This document shows positions 2,641-16,183 of a stretch of DNA of 64,000 nucleotides, piece after piece. The stretch is from NCBI GenBank assembly GCA_023250675.1, contig JAHFAE010000003.1:4311-68310 (forward strand), read 5' to 3'. Each line of letters opens with the position of its first letter. Positions within the stretch are counted from its first letter, which is position 1. The position numbers and the translations under genes are program-made. The DNA is from Oligoflexia bacterium. Its GTDB lineage: Bacteria; Bdellovibrionota; Bdellovibrionia; JABDDW01. The notes under the pieces are model-generated. The model did not search any database. It was not told where the DNA came from and was given only the letters and a program-made list of their open reading frames with translations.

Positions 2641-3102
2641 CTAGCAGGACTCCAAAACCTCTTGGAGAAACTCATTCACATGGGGCCACTTGTCATCGTC
2701 AATTCTCTCAATGGTTTCTCTATCTCCATCATAGACATGCTTGTGATGAAACTTATGGTGATCGGGTAAGTTGGACTTTACGTCCCCATGGGGACTGCAA
2801 TATCGAAATAACTTTGAGCCTCCAGGGATAGAGGCGCTGTAGGTATAATCATATGTGCGTGCTCTAGGCCGCTTTTTATTTGACGGATCTATTTCTACAT
2901 TTTTCCTAATATCAACTCTGATTGAATTTCCTTTTGTCGTTCGGATTACAATATTTTCTGCTCTTAAAATTAAAAAGAAGGGCGTGAGTTTCCTATGAAT
3001 ATAAGTCTTAACCGTAACCATATGTTTTGAGTATTGGCGCAGCACACGATCATGCACAGAGAGATAATTCTCCAGGGTATTCCAATCATGTTTGAGTTTC
3101 AT
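2641..3102 (-). CDS. hypothetical protein; downstream gene of an overlapping two-gene cassette
   Basis: 153-aa ORF. Its ATG overlaps the stop of the upstream 89-aa gene (ATGA), which implies translational coupling. It has a His-rich segment (DHHKFHHKH) and an R-x4-H near the N-terminus. No confident family assignment. Confidence 0.5.
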   Translation of the reverse strand: MKLKHDWNTLENYLSVHDRVLRQYSKHMVTVKTYIHRKLTPFFLILRAENIVIRTTKGNSIRVDIRKNVEIDPSNKKRPRARTYDYTYSASIPGGSKLFRYCSPHGDVKSNLPDHHKFHHKHVYDGDRETIERIDDDKWPHVNEFLQEVLESC

Positions 3103-3368
3103 TTTTTTAGAAATGCGACTTGTCTGGCTAGCATGAGGGCATCAAGGTGATCTTCGTTGAAATTTTTTGAGGTCTCTGCCTTTTCTAAAAGGGCTTCTAC
3201 AGAAAGATCATTTTTTGAAGCTAGAATTTCGAGTTCCATAGTTAGAGCCTTGAGGGCTTCTTCCTTGGAAGAATAAAGAGGTACACTCTTCATTACTTCG
3301 TCGAAAAGCTGATTATCTTTTGCAGAATCATCCTTTGTTTTACGTTTTGTTTTCTCAAGGTCTGCCAT
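3099..3368 (-). CDS. hypothetical small acidic helical protein; upstream gene of the cassette
   Basis: 89 aa. GGAGG sits 5 nt upstream of the ATG. The protein is K/E-rich and predicted helical, and its gene overlaps the downstream gene by 4 nt. Confidence 0.5.
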   Translation of the reverse strand: MADLEKTKRKTKDDSAKDNQLFDEVMKSVPLYSSKEEALKALTMELEILASKNDLSVEALLEKAETSKNFNEDHLDALMLARQVAFLKK

Positions 3369-3701
3369 AAGGCCTCCAGTAGAGATATAATAACATAGGT
3401 TTGCGCCAAATCGTTAGTCGAAAATAGCTTTGTTTACGTATAGTTACAACTTTATCCAAACGGTTTTCTTTACTGCCATTTATCCAATTTTTGTTTTTCG
3501 TGACCGTCAAAGGCTGCGGTCAATTCTGATTCCGCACTCCTGCAAACCTGTCTGTGCCAGAAACTACCCTGTCACAGGGTTTGCCTTACGGGTCGTGCGG
3601 GAATTGCCCTTCGCTTTGACTCTCCCATCCATCTCGCCGCTTGTCTTTTGTGAAAGCGGGCTCGATAGAGGGAGTCCCGAAAAACAAAAGGAGGATTTGA
3701 A

Positions 3702-3908
3702 ATGGGAATTGATAAAATAATTGAAATTGCAGTTGGGTTGACACTCATTGCGGCCGCCACGGGGCAATTGCCCAAAGTGGTGAGGCAAGTTCAAATGGCT
3801 CAACTCCGCCTACTTCAAGATTCTAAGACGTCGACATGGGGTCATCTTATGATTATTGATTCCAAGCAAAATTCTCGAAAGGTTTACATTGTTGATCCCC
3901 AAGAGTAG
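3702..3908 (+). CDS. small single-TM membrane protein (68 aa)
   Basis: A perfect AAGGAGG lies 7 nt upstream of the ATG. The protein has a hydrophobic segment IIEIAVGLTLIAAATG. The gene sits in an otherwise 618-bp intergenic gap. Confidence 0.4.
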   Translation: MGIDKIIEIAVGLTLIAAATGQLPKVVRQVQMAQLRLLQDSKTSTWGHLMIIDSKQNSRKVYIVDPQE

Positions 3909-3986: not shown

Positions 3987-5081
3987 TTAGATGCCCTCAG
4001 GAATCGTCTGAATCAGACTATCTATATTATATTGCCAATCTTCTGATTGAAACAATTTTTCAAGAGCCTGCTGGAATGATGAACCTAATGAAATCTGGGT
4101 TATGAGTAATTTCAATGCTCCAGTCTTATAGTATGCGTCATCATAATTATTTGGCCCCAAACCTACCGCGCAATATTTTAAAATATCTGAGCTGCTCATA
4201 ACACCCAAAAGATTTAGAGTGCTAAGCGCCATATATTCGGCAAAACCTTCAACCATTTCTCCAATAGCCTCCTCTTTAACACACTCTTTACTTTCCGGCG
4301 TTCCATTATAGGCGTTAACCATCTGATACCGCTTGTTCCGCGTTTTAAAGTAATCTTTGATAAGCTGAGTATTATTGTTGGCGGTAAAGGGATTCGATAA
4401 ATTTTTAAATATTTTAAGCAGTATGAGAGATTCTTCATCAAATAAATTTGAAACTTCTTTAGTGACGGAATAGCATTTATTAATTTTCATGGGCTTATGC
4501 CCATATGCCCAGAGCGGCCAAATTTTTCTTTCGCCGAGGTCTGGTCCGCTTTGACCAAATTGATGAAAACCCTCATGAATTAGCATAAAAATAAGAAGCA
4601 TATTTGATTTGATAAATTGTTTAAAAAACGAATCTTTCGTTTTTTCAGCCAGGCCTTTAAAAAATTCAGGCTGAATATTAAAAAGCATGATTTGAGGTTC
4701 ATTCTGTCCCACTTCTTTGGTGAGGTTTTGAGAAAGAAAATTTGAGAAAGTTTCTATGTTGCCTCGCGCTACGCTCATAAAATCATACAAACCATTTTCG
4801 GGAGGAAGTACTGATTTTAAGTAAGAGGGGCCATAAGATCTGCCGCTTTTTAGCATCAATATACACTGGGGATTCACAATCGGGTCAATTAGTGCAATTG
4901 GGAAGGCCGATAAATGGTATCCGTTTATGATTGGAGCAGTTTTAGCTTCTTTGTCTAAAAATTCTTGAATTTGGATCTTCACTGAATGGTCACGAAGAAA
5001 AGAACAATCATCGTCTATCAAGGCCTGACCACTTGCACCTGTCGAAATTATTAACAATATGAAAATAAATACAATCTTCAT
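3987..5081 (-). CDS. secreted HExxH-motif protein (putative zinc metallopeptidase-like)
   Basis: The start was moved to MKIVFIFILLIISTGASGQA, a signal peptide with AGGGAG upstream. The motif LIHEGFHQFGQ has a Glu about 11 residues after the second His. Confidence 0.5.
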   Translation of the reverse strand: MKIVFIFILLIISTGASGQALIDDDCSFLRDHSVKIQIQEFLDKEAKTAPIINGYHLSAFPIALIDPIVNPQCILMLKSGRSYGPSYLKSVLPPENGLYDFMSVARGNIETFSNFLSQNLTKEVGQNEPQIMLFNIQPEFFKGLAEKTKDSFFKQFIKSNMLLIFMLIHEGFHQFGQSGPDLGERKIWPLWAYGHKPMKINKCYSVTKEVSNLFDEESLILLKIFKNLSNPFTANNNTQLIKDYFKTRNKRYQMVNAYNGTPESKECVKEEAIGEMVEGFAEYMALSTLNLLGVMSSSDILKYCAVGLGPNNYDDAYYKTGALKLLITQISLGSSFQQALEKLFQSEDWQYNIDSLIQTIPEGI

Positions 5082-5299
5082 AAACTCCCTTTGGTCAGAG
5101 AAACAATTATCTTGGCAATGCACCGTCAGTTGCGACATATGTGCCAAAAAGAAATCAAATTAAACGACCCAGTGACCTACTAAGCTAGGAAGACCTGGAA
5201 ATGGTTCCTGGGTCGCGGCCGGGTGAGCGCCCTTTCTTGATAATGTGACCCTTGAATGAGGTTAGCTTAGCTTTCTACGGTGTTTCGGGATCGTCAAAA

Positions 5300-6681: not shown

Positions 6682-6855
6682 ATGAAGTTAGATGAAATGA
6701 CGATTGAAACAGTTCAAGTTAAGATCTTAAATGATGACTACGAAAAGAAATTGACAAATTTAGTAAAAATACTTTTGGAAATTGGAGAGACAACCAATTC
6801 AAGACAGGCTAATAAGGATGAGTCAAAACCGTCTGAAAATTTGGAGGCCGCATGA
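6682..6855 (+). CDS. 57-aa small protein translationally coupled to the serine recombinase (candidate directionality factor or regulator)
   Basis: ATG preceded by AGAGGTG. The stop TGA overlaps the recombinase ATG (ATGA). This ORF is not in the supplied track, presumably because it is under 60 aa. Confidence 0.4.
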   Translation: MKLDEMTIETVQVKILNDDYEKKLTNLVKILLEIGETTNSRQANKDESKPSENLEAA

Positions 6856-8585
6856 AACGAATTGGGCTCTATTTAAGAGTATCCACTGAAGAGCAGGCAA
6901 GAATTACTGACGGGAGTCTCGTCAGTCAGAAAGCCAGGCTTGAAGAATATGTGGCAGGCCTTAACAGGCGAGATAGCGGTTGGGGTCAGATAGTTGACGT
7001 TTACCAAGATACCCTTTCGGCTAAAGACATGAACCGCCCGGAGTTTAAAAGACTCATTGCCGATGTTCGCTCGGGCCGCATCAACCTGATCTTGGCAACA
7101 GAGCTTTCCAGATTGTCGAGGTCCACTAGGGATTTTTGCGAGCTGTGGGATATCTTTAAACAATATAAGACCCGCTTCATAACCCTGCGGGAGCAGTTTG
7201 ATACAACCACGGCCGCAGGTGAGATGATGGTTTTTAACCTCATTAATTTTGCTCAATTTGAAAGAAAACAAACGGCTGAAAGAATATCCGCAAACCAGCT
7301 ATCCCGTGCCAAACGCGGGCTTTGGAACGGTGGCACGATTCCATTGGGTTATACCCGTAACCCCAAAAACCCGGGGCAGCTCATTCCAAATCAGGATGAA
7401 GCCAAAGACGTTGAGACGATTTTTAAGACGTTTCTTGAAACTGGAGCTGTTAGAAAAGCCTGTCAGGCCGTTACAAAGAAGGGGATCTTCTCAAAGTCAT
7501 ATGTGAATAAGCACGGTATTGCAAAGGGTGGTGGCGCTTTCACGGTCCCAAGCCTCTATCAAATCCTCACCAATAAGGCCTATCTTGGAATTAGAGAGAT
7601 CAATAAGAAGAAGTCGACCAGTAAATTGGAGGAAGTGAAAGCGGCGTGGGAGCCGATTGTAAATCGGGAATTATTTGACCTGGTTCAAGAAAGACTTGGA
7701 GCAAATAAGAATAAGTATAAACCTGCCGAGTGGAAAAAATATGCTTATCCGCTCACTGAAAAAATTATCTGTGGTGAATGCGGCAAGAATCTCGGGGGCA
7801 AATCTGCTAACGGCCAGGGCGGGACCTATAATTACTATGCTCATGCAAGGCAGCTTCATAGTGACGGCAAATCGCACTTGAAGCGATGTCAAATGGAGAA
7901 GGTGAGGGCTCAAAGGACCGAAGAGATGGTGATTCGCTCCCTTAGAGACGTTCTCTCAAGGCCGGAAAAGATTGACGAGATGATCCAAGCCTACGCGAAA
8001 CAAAGCCAAGAGGTGATACCTGGGCTAGAGGGAAAGCTTAAGCAAGTCGACATTGAAATTAGGACCCATGGGAAACGGCGCGAGAATTTAATGGAACGTA
8101 TTGCAGATTTGCCGCCAGAAATTAATGCTGATTTATTCTTTGAGAAGATTAAGGCTGTGACTAAAAAACTTGAATCGGCAGACGTCATAAAAGCTGATCT
8201 CATGGCACAGAAAAACAAAGCGACGGGCCAGGTTATTGATAGAGAAGGGTTAAGGCGAAGGCTGCACAATTCCTTGGCGCTCCTAGAATCAAGTCCCAAG
8301 GAGAAACAACGCGAGATCTTTAATAACGTCATCCAGTTTGCAGAAGTTTATCCGATGAAAATGCGGTTGGGACTCTACGCCCCGACCGTTTCCTCAACGC
8401 TGACCGATCAAAAGCTTACTGGTACTGATTCTTATTTAAGAAGGTGTGCCAGTTCGACCAGCGTTAGGAGTGGTGCCTCCGAGGAGAATCGAACTCCTAC
8501 ACCCGTGAAGGTACTGGATTTTGAGTCCAGCGCGTCTACCAGTTCCGCCACAGAGGCAATCAAAAAAAACCTAGTGAGTTCATGA
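6852..8585 (+). CDS. large serine recombinase (integrase/resolvase-type N-terminal domain)
   Basis: The N-terminus MKRIGLYLRVSTEEQ carries the catalytic Ser and a resolvase-like domain (~140 aa), followed by a long recombinase/zinc-ribbon/coiled-coil region (CGECG...). GGAGG precedes the start. The last ~38 codons are read antisense through the tRNA-Leu. Confidence 0.8.
   Translation: MKRIGLYLRVSTEEQARITDGSLVSQKARLEEYVAGLNRRDSGWGQIVDVYQDTLSAKDMNRPEFKRLIADVRSGRINLILATELSRLSRSTRDFCELWDIFKQYKTRFITLREQFDTTTAAGEMMVFNLINFAQFERKQTAERISANQLSRAKRGLWNGGTIPLGYTRNPKNPGQLIPNQDEAKDVETIFKTFLETGAVRKACQAVTKKGIFSKSYVNKHGIAKGGGAFTVPSLYQILTNKAYLGIREINKKKSTSKLEEVKAAWEPIVNRELFDLVQERLGANKNKYKPAEWKKYAYPLTEKIICGECGKNLGGKSANGQGGTYNYYAHARQLHSDGKSHLKRCQMEKVRAQRTEEMVIRSLRDVLSRPEKIDEMIQAYAKQSQEVIPGLEGKLKQVDIEIRTHGKRRENLMERIADLPPEINADLFFEKIKAVTKKLESADVIKADLMAQKNKATGQVIDREGLRRRLHNSLALLESSPKEKQREIFNNVIQFAEVYPMKMRLGLYAPTVSSTLTDQKLTGTDSYLRRCASSTSVRSGASEENRTPTPVKVLDFESSASTSSATEAIKKNLVSS
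8471..8557 (-). tRNA. tRNA-Leu (anticodon CAA)
   Basis: The reverse complement folds as a class II tRNA. The acceptor stem is GCCTCTG/CGGAGGC. The D-arm contains GG. The anticodon stem-loop is CTGGA-CTCAAAA-TCCAG, with U33, anticodon CAA and A37. There is a long variable arm, a T-arm AGGAG-TTCGATT-CTCCT, a discriminator A and an encoded CCA. Confidence 0.85.
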
Positions 8586-8843: not shown

Positions 8844-10049
8844 ATGGAAAAATTTTTACAAATCGCTGTGGTCGTCGGAACATTGGGAATCTCAGGCTTT
8901 TCCCTAGGAGCTGAAGACTACAATCAAGGATTAAAAAAAGAACTTAGCGAAGTTAAGAAAATTCAGGTTGAAAAAGTAGCTCCAGCTATAAGTTCTGCTG
9001 AATCAATCAACACCGTAACACAAGTTCAGACACAAACCCCTCCGTCTACAAACACGAACCTGCAACCCATCTACATACTGCAACAACCGGCAGCTTCGCC
9101 CCAGGCGCAAGTTCAGCCCGCAACCACCATTGAAGCTGCGCCGGTAAAAGAGTCTCGTGCAGATCAGTTGAGAAAACAAAGAGAAGAAGTTGAACATCAA
9201 ACGGAAAATAAGCTTGTTGAACGACTTGAAGATGATCGCCTCTTATCTGAAAAAGACCGAGCAGACCGACTCTTGGCACCGTTGAATCCACCAACGCCCG
9301 CGGTTTCACCTTCTCCTCTTACTGTCAATCCCCCCATCACGACTGTACCAACTAATGCAACAGTTACTCCGGCGACAGTTGTTCCTCCACCCGTAGTAGC
9401 TCCGGTAATTGTAACAAGAGAAGAAGTACCTACTGTCACAGCTACCCATGATGACCTCATGCGAAACAATGAATCTGAAGAACCTGCTAAGTTCAGCATT
9501 GGTGCCTTGGCCGGTCTTGGTTCTTATCCTTCAGTCGGCAACGTCAACGGCGCCTATGCTGCCGGTGTCCTCATGGATATGCAGTTTGCCGAGCGTTTAG
9601 GACTTGAAACTGCATTTCTTTATTCAAGCTATGACATAAAGAACAACTACAATAATTTTTACTGCCCAGGCTGCGGCGGCAGTCTTGTCACAACTCTCAA
9701 TCAATATAATTTTGATGTTGGTTTGACTTATCATATTTTAGGCGGCCGAGTTTCGCCGGTGGTCGGAGTAATAGCCGACTACACCCGGCGAAGTTATTCA
9801 GATCGAATTCGTTATGGTTCAAATACCGGTTCGACTCGGGGTTCTAATTCCTTTGACGGGGGATTTCTGGTCGGAGTAGACGTTTCGGCAACCAAAAAAC
9901 TAACGGTGGGTATGGATATTCGATATCTCATGAATTTCAGTTACCGCACCGACGACGCACTAGCTTATAACGTAGGTTATCAGCAAGGCGATCCCATTGA
10001 ATCTCTCAATTACTACTTTGCCACATTAAGTTTGAAATTGTCCTTATAA
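8844..10049 (+). CDS. outer-membrane beta-barrel protein with a Pro/Thr/Val-rich linker
   Basis: AAGGAG precedes the start. The protein has a signal peptide, a long low-complexity PT-rich region and a C-terminal segment of alternating hydrophobic residues. Confidence 0.5.
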   Translation: MEKFLQIAVVVGTLGISGFSLGAEDYNQGLKKELSEVKKIQVEKVAPAISSAESINTVTQVQTQTPPSTNTNLQPIYILQQPAASPQAQVQPATTIEAAPVKESRADQLRKQREEVEHQTENKLVERLEDDRLLSEKDRADRLLAPLNPPTPAVSPSPLTVNPPITTVPTNATVTPATVVPPPVVAPVIVTREEVPTVTATHDDLMRNNESEEPAKFSIGALAGLGSYPSVGNVNGAYAAGVLMDMQFAERLGLETAFLYSSYDIKNNYNNFYCPGCGGSLVTTLNQYNFDVGLTYHILGGRVSPVVGVIADYTRRSYSDRIRYGSNTGSTRGSNSFDGGFLVGVDVSATKKLTVGMDIRYLMNFSYRTDDALAYNVGYQQGDPIESLNYYFATLSLKLSL

Positions 10050-10054
10050 TCAAA

Positions 10055-10088
10055 AGCGCTTCAGGATGAGGCGCTTTTTTTTGTTCAA
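10055..10088 (+). terminator. rho-independent terminator
   Basis: agcgcttc-aggat-gaggcgct, followed by T8. Confidence 0.55.
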
Positions 10089-10124
10089 AATGACAAAACT
10101 TCAAAACTCTGGCATCCTGTTGTT

Positions 10125-10817
10125 ATGCACATGACTTCTAAAAGTTTACTCTTATTTCTAGTCCTTTCAGTTTTCGGAACACCCGATGCTTTTGCAACAA
10201 AACAAATGGTTCTTAAATCAGTGGGTGCCGTAGGTGGCAAGGTCATTACAAACCGCGATGTTGAAGCAAATTACATCGTAGATAGGGTGCTGTATAATAA
10301 TGGTTCCTATACTCCTATTAGTCTTGGCACCGAAGAATTTAACTCGGCTCTAGATCGGCTGCTAGTCGAATATATGGTTTTTGAAGAAGCAACGGAGTTT
10401 GGTGTGGCAAAGGTAGCCGATTCTGAAGTTGACCAATCTTTTGGCTCCGTAAAAACTAAATTAAATAACACGGGCCCCATTCATTCAAATTGGTCTTTGT
10501 TAGGATACTCAGAGCCGCAGCTCAAAGAAATGGTGGGAAGAAAACTTCGCTCCAATCGATTCATTAAATATAAGTCTAACTCCAGTTACGTTCAGGTCAG
10601 CGACGAAGAGGCTCGGGATTATTTTAATAAAAACCAATTAAAATTTGGAACGGCTGAATTTGAAGGATTTAAGGTCAATATCAAGAAATTTCTTGGTAAG
10701 AAAAATGCCGACGATCGGCTCCGAGAATGGTTTGAAATTCTTCGAAAAAAGCATAAAGTAAAAAATCTTCAAATTGCCAATGAAGGGCACAGTGTTAAAG
10801 CACCGGCCGATCAATAG
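10125..10817 (+). CDS. secreted protein resembling a SurA N-terminal chaperone domain
   Basis: Signal peptide, then a segment (VITNRDVEANYIVDRVL...LDRLLVEYMVFEEA) resembling SurA/PpiD N-domains. Confidence 0.4.
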   Translation: MHMTSKSLLLFLVLSVFGTPDAFATKQMVLKSVGAVGGKVITNRDVEANYIVDRVLYNNGSYTPISLGTEEFNSALDRLLVEYMVFEEATEFGVAKVADSEVDQSFGSVKTKLNNTGPIHSNWSLLGYSEPQLKEMVGRKLRSNRFIKYKSNSSYVQVSDEEARDYFNKNQLKFGTAEFEGFKVNIKKFLGKKNADDRLREWFEILRKKHKVKNLQIANEGHSVKAPADQ

Positions 10818-13522: not shown

Positions 13523-16183
13523 GTGGAGCAAATTAAAGTATTCGAATTGGCAAAACAAATGGGCATGGAAACCATCGCCCTCATGGACAAACTTCGGGAA
13601 TTCAAAATTCCTGTTAAAAGTCACATGGCTGAATTGGATGAAATCCTGGTCGCACAGATCCAGGTAAAATTTGACGAAGAAAAAAAGACCACTCCTAAAA
13701 AAGCGACTAAGACCGTCAGAGCTAAAAAAGCAGCATCGTCTGCAAGCCCTGCAATATCATCAAACATAATTAAGAGTAACTCTACTGCAGCAAAGGCCCC
13801 TGTAAAAGCTACTTCAAAACCTGCGGTTAAAGCGGTAACGAAGGCGAGTGGTCCGGTAGAATCAGCACTTCCTTCTAGTCGAACAGTCATTAGAAGAAAA
13901 GCAAACGCCCCTGAACTAGTCCAACCTGATGCAGTTGAAATAGCAGAACAAAATATTGAAGGAGATGCCCAACACGCTGATTCGGTTGAGGGTTTAGAGC
14001 ATGGGAGGACGGATGTAGAAACTAGTTCTCAGTTAGTTGTTGATGAGAAAACACCCGTCAGACCTGGAATGGCCCAAGTTATTTCACGAATTGATCTTCG
14101 AGATACAATGGGCTCAAAAGCGCCCGTGATCCCATCAACTCAAGGGACTACTCAGGCTTCCAAAGAAAAAGCTGTCGCCGACGCTCGTGCCGCTAGTGAA
14201 GCGACTCTTGAAGCAAATAAATTTGACCGAGAAGCTATTGGAAAACTCATTAAGCAAGAGGCCCTAGCTCAAGCCAAGAAAGCGGCTGCTCTTCTCAGAG
14301 AAACAAAAATTGAAACTTTTAACGCAGCCGATTTTAAAAAGCGAGAAATGCTTTTTCAACCCAAAAAGAAAAAAACACTTACTGGCAGGGCAGCTCAGAA
14401 GACACAAATCACCAAACCCGGCGCTGCAAAGCGTAAAATAAAAATTGATGGATTAATAAATGTATCTGAGTTGGCTCAGGCAATGGGCATAAAGGCCAAT
14501 GTATTGCTAAAAAAACTCTTGGCCATGGGTTCAACTGTTGCCATCACAGATGTTTTAGATTTCGAAACGGCTCAAATTACTGCGACAGAGTTTGGATTTG
14601 AGGTTGAAAACATAAACCGAACAGATGAGCAATTGATTGCCGAAAATTCCGATGTAGTCGATAAGACGATGCAATCGAGGCCACCTGTTGTTACTGTTAT
14701 GGGGCACGTTGACCACGGAAAAACCTCCCTTTTAGATTCTATTCGAAAAGCAAACGTGGCTAGCGGTGAAGCGGGAGGCATAACTCAGCATATAGGTGCT
14801 TACAGCGTTGAAATCAATTCTAAGAAAATCACTTTTCTAGACACTCCTGGCCATGAGGCTTTTACCGCAATGCGAGCGCGCGGTGCAAAAGTTACTGACA
14901 TCGTCATTTTGGTCGTAGCTGCTGATGATGGAATTATGCCCCAGACAAGAGAAGCAATATTACACGCAAAAACTGCAGGCGTTCCCATTATCGTGGTCGT
15001 TAACAAAATGGATTTGCCCGCTGCTAATCCTCAAAAAGTTTTGCAAGGTTTAACTGAATTTGAGTTAGTTCCTGAAGAATGGGGCGGAACAACAATCGTA
15101 GCGAAAGTTTCTGCGACGAAAAAAGATGGAATTAAAGAATTATTAGAAATGATTTTGCTGCAAGCCGAAGTTTTAGAACTTAAAGCTAATCCCAACAGAC
15201 CTGCCTCAGGAACAATTATTGAAGCAAGACTTGAACGGGGCTGCGGAACTGTAGCCACCATGCTTGTTCAACAGGGAACAGCTAGAATTGGTGATATTGT
15301 TGTCGCGGGAGTTGTCTCAGGCCGAATTAGGGCTATGAATGATGACAAGGGAAAATCGGTAAAGCAAGCCTCGCCTGGTGATCCCGTTGAGATCACAGGT
15401 TTAGACGCTGTCCCCAGTGCAGGCGATGTATTTGATGTAGTAAAGAGCGAAGAAGTGGCAAAAGAAATCATTGAGAAACGAATTTCAAAAACTAAAGCTA
15501 GTCAGGCCACCCCTGCTCTCAAAATGTCCCTAGAAGACCTATTTGCAAAGGTTCAGCAATCTGATGTTAAGGAATTAGCGGTCATAGTAAAGGCTGACGT
15601 GCATGGGTCGGCTGAAGCTCTTAAAGAATTGCTTAATAAGTCTTCCAGCGAAAAAGTTCGCCTGAAAGTACTTTCAAGTACTGTTGGTGGTATTACTGAG
15701 AGCGATGTTCTTTTGGCTTCCACAAGTAATGCTATTATCATTGGGTTTAACGTAAGGCCAGAGTCGGGAGTTGGTGCAGTAGCAGAACGCGAAGGTATAG
15801 AAATAAAAACTTACTCTATAATCTACGAGGTGATTGACGATATTAAAAAAGCAATGACCGGAATGTTGGCGCCGACCTTTGTTGAGAAAGCTCTGGGACG
15901 AGCAGAAGTTCGATCTCTGTTCAACGTCCCAAAGGTGGGGACAGTTGCTGGTTGCATGGTTGTCGATGGTAAAGTAACTCGGCAATCTCAAGTTCGCTTG
16001 CTTAGAGACAGTCGAATCATTTACGAAGGAAAACTTGCATCTCTGAGGCGTTTTAAAGATGACGCCCGCGAAGTTCAAAGTGGTTATGAATGCGGTATTG
16101 GTATCGATAACTATAACGACCTTAAAGTAGGCGATGTTATTGAAGCTTATACCAAAGAACAAGTAGCGAGCTTACTGTCATGA
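13523..16183 (+). CDS. infB: translation initiation factor IF-2
   Basis: GTPase motifs [14 protein letters not shown] and NKMD. The N-terminus is Lys/Ala-rich. Confidence 0.9.

Follow-up and report, generated by a model that had tools for sequence, protein, structure and literature searches.

A putative TumE-family toxin gene and its co-occurring small partner in Bdellovibrionota

What is the role of two small, overlapping genes that databases list as a pair of hypothetical proteins? The genes lie in a 64,000-nucleotide stretch of an Oligoflexia bacterium genome (contig JAHFAE010000003.1, positions 4,311 to 68,310), which we call the window, and they encode an 89-residue protein followed by a 153-residue, histidine-rich one. 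An initial annotation of this DNA proposed a candidate novel toxin-antitoxin (TA) or abortive-infection pair on a genomic island and placed the larger product in no named family. Can such a pair be given a name and a testable function? The observations outlined below are consistent with a TA module of the TumE-TumA superfamily, a reading that extends this superfamily into predatory bacteria.

Layout of the gene pair

The pair and the region upstream of it comprise the following features, with the evidence for each given in parentheses.

2641-3102, minus strand: putative toxin gene of the TumE superfamily (DUF6516), 153 aa (ORF; A1 alignment and profile; hhalign; AlphaFold)
3099-3368, minus strand: putative TumA-type antitoxin gene, 89 aa (ORF; 11-protein family; AlphaFold; homolog upstream of the toxin at every locus)
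3099-3102, minus strand: ATGA stop/start overlap, in which the TGA of the 89-aa gene meets the ATG of the 153-aa gene (sequence)
3373-3377, minus strand: GGAGG Shine-Dalgarno sequence, 4 bases 5' of the ATG (3368) of the 89-aa gene (direct sequence reading)
3369-3700, minus strand: intergenic region upstream of the pair, presumed promoter, common to the pair and a divergent 68-aa ORF (promoter and operator scans)
3702-3908, plus strand: 68-aa ORF, divergent from the pair (ORF)

The overlapping genes, the GGAGG ribosome-binding site, and the ATGA overlap had all been described in the initial annotation, and all are present; the two ORFs are found at the positions that it gave, on the minus strand, a detail that it had left unstated. 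We take both ORFs as genuine genes and not chance reading frames, since both have homologs (to 36% identity for the 153-residue protein and to about 25 to 30% for the 89-residue protein) and the larger product yields a confident structural model. No Shine-Dalgarno sequence precedes the toxin ATG (GCATTTCTAAAAAAATGA; the 17 bases 5' of it are GTCGCATTTCTAAAAAA). Based on the ATGA overlap and the absence of a Shine-Dalgarno sequence of its own, we infer that the 153-aa gene is translated by coupling to the 89-aa gene. Farther upstream, a sigma-70 consensus scan of positions 3369 to 3700 returned no minus-strand site and a total no higher than that of shuffled sequence, and the search for a convincing operator palindrome upstream of the pair returned a single weak 9-nt inverted repeat.

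Homology and predicted folds of the two proteins

Does the 153-residue protein belong to a known family? Neither window protein has a significant match in Pfam, NCBIfam, PADLOC, or PHROGs, and in the Pfam and NCBIfam scans, the larger one matches neither PF20126 nor NF045777 even at an E value of ≤10. These are the curated models for the toxin of the TumE-TumA superfamily, also known as DUF6516 (Durairaj et al., Nature 2023, PMC10584680). A collection of 5.8 billion protein clusters holds 17 homologs of the protein, down to 36% identity, at E values of 1e-22 to 1e-76; when these are scanned singly, 2 of the 17 match PF20126 (“Toxin TumE”) weakly, the better at 6.6e-4. The alignment of the 17 and the profile made from it are here called A1.

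The A1 profile retrieves 289 proteins at an E value of ≤1e-3 from 1.84 billion representative proteins. Among its distant matches, which number 93 and are 21 to 35% identical to the window protein, PF20126 is matched by 42 (best E value, 2.8e-12) and NF045777 (“toxin TumE”) by 17. Four proteins that were checked individually (P0061, P0065, P0096, and P0142) exceed the Pfam gathering score of 23.4 bits, and the A1 profile reaches these same four at E values of 2e-18 to 1.5e-8. Aligned with hhalign to Pfam-positive TumE proteins, A1 scores a probability of 99.8% (E value, 2.2e-29) over 144 of 154 columns; this comparison set consists of Pfam-positive proteins from our own profile search. The aligned blocks are K-H-x-W-N together with H17 in the first helix, V-x-K67, T83-x-x-Y86-x-Y88, R100-Y101-(C/D)-x-x-H105, H119-H120-K-H122, and W-P140...E-(F/V). 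Judged by this profile homology, the 153-residue protein is a divergent and currently unannotated member of the TumE/DUF6516 superfamily. Since the window protein and most of its close homologs fall below the curated models, membership rests on homology at the level of profiles; PF20126 and NF045777 both miss a whole clade, one that is found only in Bdellovibrionota. The larger protein can therefore be placed in a named family after all, and the homology that emerged is to a toxin superfamily rather than to a housekeeping family.

Conservation within the A1 alignment falls on K4-H5-x-W7, K67, T83/Y86/Y88, R100-Y101-C102-S-P104-H105, H115, H119-H120-K-H122, and P140-H141, and within the close family, a single Cys and six His never vary. 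Two histidine-containing motifs had been singled out at the start, an R-x4-H near the N terminus and an HHKFHHKH cluster. Both are present, and they fared differently: R23-x4-H28 is not conserved, whereas the cluster (residues 115 to 122) has H115, H119, H120, and H122 invariant in the close family and H120 and H122 invariant in all 94 sequences of the wider family, in which R100 and Y101 each reach at least 90% conservation. Because the motifs align in hhalign and H120 and H122 are invariant across those 94 sequences, we identify the HHKFHHKH cluster, on sequence grounds, as the TumE family signature.

The AlphaFold2 model of the protein, computed from the 17-sequence alignment, is confident (pLDDT, 92.7; pTM, 0.87). 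It comprises a helix (residues 10 to 23), seven strands (35-40, 43-54, 60-72, 80-91, 97-102, 120-125, and 128-133), a short helix between the fifth and sixth of these (114-117), and a C-terminal helix (142-152). The published TumE fold has two helices packed on a seven-stranded antiparallel sheet, with no relative in the PDB (PMC10584680), and by the number and order of elements, compared without superposition, the model belongs to the same fold class of helix, seven strands, and helix. The initial annotation had suggested AlphaFold and Foldseek for both proteins, and a PDB match was found for neither: Foldseek returned none for the toxin model in the PDB and none among viral structures (BFVD) at an E value of ≤1e-3, and a sequence-profile search with the toxin family likewise returned no PDB entry. 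The conserved residues map to strands 3 to 6 and the loops after them, where, if the model is right, they would form a single active face. This is a well-conserved and confidently modeled variant of TumE, and its invariant Cys and six His are natural targets for mutagenesis.

What of the partner? The 89-residue protein finds 3 homologs in a large protein collection when used as a single query and 11 when used as a profile, reaching down to about 25 to 30% identity. The family consists of those 11 proteins and of others extracted from the loci described below, all of them accompanying this toxin clade, and its core reads roughly S-S-K-x-x-A-L-x-A-L-x-x-E-L-x-x-L-A-x-K-x-x-L-S-V-E-E-L-L...E-D...A-L-R-L...L-K-K. 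AlphaFold predicts four helices (residues 15-27, 35-52, 57-66, and 72-88; pLDDT, 73.5) preceded by 12 disordered, Lys-rich residues. The window protein is acidic (pI 5.2), so that its earlier description as helical and acidic was accurate for this copy. Partner pI values span 4.8 to 9.6 in the 19 distinct pairs described below, a spread to which automatic start-codon choice may contribute, and acidity is thus not a trait of the family.

No match to the partner family turned up in the copies of Pfam-A, NCBIfam, PADLOC, PHROGs, and PDB that we searched, and its predicted fold has no PDB match by Foldseek at an E value of ≤1e-3. We found no recognizable DNA-binding domain in it, nor does it resemble any known antitoxin to a significant degree. 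Hits to Put_Phosphatase (E value, 0.06) and Antitox_RHH (E value, 0.15) were set aside as noise, and a profile match to designed dTor helical repeats in the PDB (E value, 2e-15) was taken as a compositional or helical-repeat artifact. With neither a DNA-binding domain nor an operator-like repeat, classical autoregulation is unsupported. The 89-residue protein is probably the antitoxin of the 153-residue protein, and the family it represents is a clade-specific family of putative antitoxins that is matchless in the libraries searched: one more unrelated-looking antitoxin family for a toxin already known with many partners.

Co-occurrence, distribution, and genomic context

If the two genes form a module, they should be found together elsewhere, a check that the initial annotation had proposed. 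We scanned all six frames of metagenome and genome contigs with hidden Markov models of both families. A partner homolog lies directly upstream of the toxin gene, on the same strand, at 33 of 33 loci, which represent 19 distinct pairs; in 18 of the 19, the distance from the partner stop to the toxin start is −4 to +16 bases. The same arrangement recurs at three distant TumE loci (L035, L037, and L039) and, in part, at a fourth (L038). The two proteins also diverge together: pairwise identities among toxins correlate with those among partners (r = 0.76), a value that none of 5,000 Mantel permutations reaches. Mean identity is 28% for the partner and 45% for the toxin, the partner diverging faster. 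Antitoxins usually diverge faster than toxins.

Every genome match is a metagenome-assembled genome (MAG) of Bdellovibrionota, assigned to Bdellovibrio, Pseudobdellovibrionaceae, Bacteriovoracaceae, or Oligoflexia. Two paralogous pairs, L018 and L023, occur in a single MAG. A Bacteriovoracaceae MAG (L032) carries two copies of the pair, 94 to 98% identical and 7.38 kb apart (7989-8393 and 15372-15776), and in both toxin genes, an in-frame TGA stands at one and the same codon, following YTYHCW; the partners beside them are intact. The long ORFs around these pairs read normally in the standard code; we consider the locus to be either a duplicated pseudogene or, as the less likely alternative, a case of recoding. 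In a Bdellovibrio MAG (L033, 7705-8242), the partner is intact and the toxin has lost the region of its central sheet through a deletion and a frameshift, which makes this a decayed module. Broken toxins beside intact partners, as at these two loci, fit selection against an active toxin. The L032 contig also holds four copies of a 147-nt direct repeat, 61 to 94% identical to one another, over 10 kb (4992-5138, 9993-10139, 14051-14197, and 14822-14968), a small repeat that may be mobile or regulatory.

The neighbors of the pair differ from locus to locus. A PIN pair lies nearby at L001, and ordinary metabolic or chromosomal genes do so at L004 and L016. At L010 (6561-12462), the pair lies at the edge of a cluster of conjugative type IV secretion genes (TrbC, a VirB4/TraG-like ATPase, and TrbL) and is probably carried by a conjugative element. 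On one metagenome contig (L014, 6782-8721), it sits beside a diversity-generating retroelement with an RVT_1 reverse transcriptase, bAvd, and an HRDC protein, and genes with FGE-sulfatase domains flank both sides.

Is the pair in the window on an island, as the initial annotation had it? The genes to the right of the 68-aa ORF are these.

3987-5147, minus strand: ORF, 386 aa
5643-6437, plus strand: ORF, 264 aa
6676-6855, plus strand: ORF, 59 aa
6852-8585, plus strand: large serine recombinase, 577 aa (Resolvase, Recombinase, and Zn_ribbon_recom domains; phrog_95 integrase)
8471-8557, minus strand: tRNA-Leu(CAA), intact, overlapped by the recombinase ORF

The recombinase ORF crosses the antisense strand of the tRNA gene entirely and ends 28 bases past it. 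Because a large serine recombinase abuts a tRNA-Leu gene about 3.5 kb from the pair, it is plausible that a small element integrated at that tRNA gene and that the pair is aboard. The three ORFs in between have no Pfam or PHROGs match at an E value of ≤0.01; the smallest of them, of 59 aa, shares positions 6852-6855 with the start of the recombinase gene and could encode a directionality or excision factor. The boundaries of such an element did not emerge: we found no att-like direct repeat between the tRNA gene and the region left of the pair, no compositional step at the putative island, and no empty site, a metagenome scan with the neighboring OmpA protein having yielded one irrelevant locus.

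A probable TumE-type module and its alternatives

How do these observations compare with known systems? In most TumE clusters, the DUF6516 gene is the second of a two-gene operon that opens with a small partner gene, and the partners are diverse and mostly uncharacterized (PMC10584680). Six gammaproteobacterial pairs, all of subcluster 1a, were tested in Escherichia coli: all six toxins halted growth, and all six were neutralized by their partners (PMC10584680). The TumE of Allochromatium tepidum cut 35S-methionine incorporation, an effect on translation shown for that toxin only, and an RNase activity of TumE was proposed as a “yet-unproven” one (PMC10584680). A full-text literature search returned no later paper on the mechanism of TumE.

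The window pair resembles these systems in a toxin that is homologous over its full length, has the same fold class, carries an RY-x-x-x-H ... HHKH ... WP signature, and is encoded 3' of a small, fast-evolving partner in a two-gene unit. It differs from them as follows. The toxin does not reach the curated cutoffs of Pfam and NCBIfam and belongs to a clade found only in Bdellovibrionota; the clade reads RYCSPH, with Cys replacing the usual Asp of the RYD motif; and the partner forms a small family of its own, with no match to RelB-like or other Pfam antitoxins and no evident DNA-binding domain. The partners of neighboring long TumE clades (80 and 87 aa; L035, L037, L039, and, in part, L038) match the 89-residue protein in size, in position, and in overlapping the toxin start, and they share with its family a loose helix-loop-helix pattern, (K/E)L..(F/L)(E/A)....(M/L)(S/T)...(M/L)L....(E/D)D, but this likeness falls short of significance (hhalign probability, 20%; pairwise E value, 1e-3 over 39 columns). 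Compared with RelBE, MazEF, and VapBC, the pair shares an antitoxin-first, two-gene operon, a stop/start overlap, a scattered presence on mobile elements, and translation as the probable target. However, its toxin resembles RelE, MazF, or PIN in neither sequence nor fold, and its partner has none of the DNA-binding domains (RHH, AbrB, HTH, and Phd) that those antitoxins carry.

In total, we consider it probable that the pair is a type II TA module of the TumE-TumA superfamily with a clade-specific antitoxin, a reading supported by the constant co-occurrence of the two genes and by the homology of the 153-residue protein to experimentally validated TumE. The original proposal of a novel TA pair is therefore supported in its TA assignment, to which the 33 of 33 loci and the TumE homology both point, and not in its novelty: by profile homology, the toxin belongs to a named family (TumE/DUF6516, PF20126), and the module is of a known kind. 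The general understanding of TA systems is unchanged by this finding.

From its homology to the tested TumE proteins, we posit a mechanism in which the 153-residue protein would stop growth by a shutdown of protein synthesis, probably through a hydrolytic, RNase-like site. Strands 3 to 6 would supply this site with the conserved Arg-Tyr-Cys...His and HHxHHKH residues. Since the toxin start is probably coupled to the stop of the 89-aa gene (ATGA, with no separate ribosome-binding site), the four-helix partner would be made first and in excess, and it would bind and neutralize the toxin. We speculate that the module may stabilize the small integrated element near the serine recombinase and tRNA-Leu.

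Could the Bdellovibrionota clade be a functionally distinct branch of TumE? In this proposal, the active site would use Cys (RYCSPH versus RYDNxH), activity might be metal dependent or directed at another target, and a new four-helix antitoxin fold without a DNA-binding domain would go with noncanonical regulation. We think this unlikely; if it were true, the clade may reveal the biochemical activity of TumE toxins.

A role in defense, with a TumE-like effector freed on infection to kill or arrest the cell, would be a matter of function and not of distinct architecture. Many type II TA modules act in phage defense, and genes of mobile elements lie near the pair in the window, at L010, and at L014. 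Nevertheless, PADLOC-DB 2.0 has no match to either protein at an E value of ≤10, PHROGs has none, and the 27 pattern matches on viral contigs include no relatives of the toxin family. No recognizable defense genes adjoin the pair in the loci examined, and no trigger or sensor component is evident. We judge an anti-phage role, including the abortive infection first suggested, to be improbable; the PADLOC and viral-contig results both go against it.

Is the pair a TA module at all? The invariant Cys and six His would suit metal binding, and one can imagine a protein rich in His and Cys that binds metal as an enzyme or metallochaperone, is assisted or regulated by a small helical subunit, and serves a function specific to Bdellovibrionota. 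The restriction of the close family to Bdellovibrionota MAGs, the ordinary chromosomal genes that flank several loci, and the fact that the toxicity tests cover one TumE subcluster (PMC10584680), far from this clade, would all agree with such a function. Against it stand the full-length homology to a superfamily in which six of six tested pairs behave as TA pairs, the patchy distribution, the genomes with multiple copies (L018 and L023; L032), the variable context, and the toxin pseudogenes beside intact partners, features that typify selfish TA modules as opposed to housekeeping enzymes. We regard a metalloprotein of this sort as quite improbable.

An assignment of the 153-residue protein to the HEPN or HNH nuclease toxins, which R23-x4-H28 and the His cluster of the window sequence might suggest, is scarcely credible, since R23 and H28 vary in the alignment, the predicted fold is mainly a seven-stranded sheet flanked by two helices as opposed to the all-alpha HEPN fold, neither family has a Pfam match at an E value of ≤10, and the Foldseek results against the PDB contain no HNH protein or any other nuclease.

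Two further features border the gene pair in the window. On its upstream side, the divergent 68-aa ORF has a ribosome-binding site of its own (AAAGGAGG) and a hydrophobic stretch at its start, and it is also called as a gene in two contigs of the same species (L008 and L009). On the downstream side, within the 294-bp gap between a convergent OmpA-family gene and the toxin gene, positions 2563 to 2603 hold a perfect 9-bp inverted repeat (ACAAAGGCC ... GGCCTTTGT) with a 23-nt loop, which may serve as a terminator in both directions or as a site of recombination.
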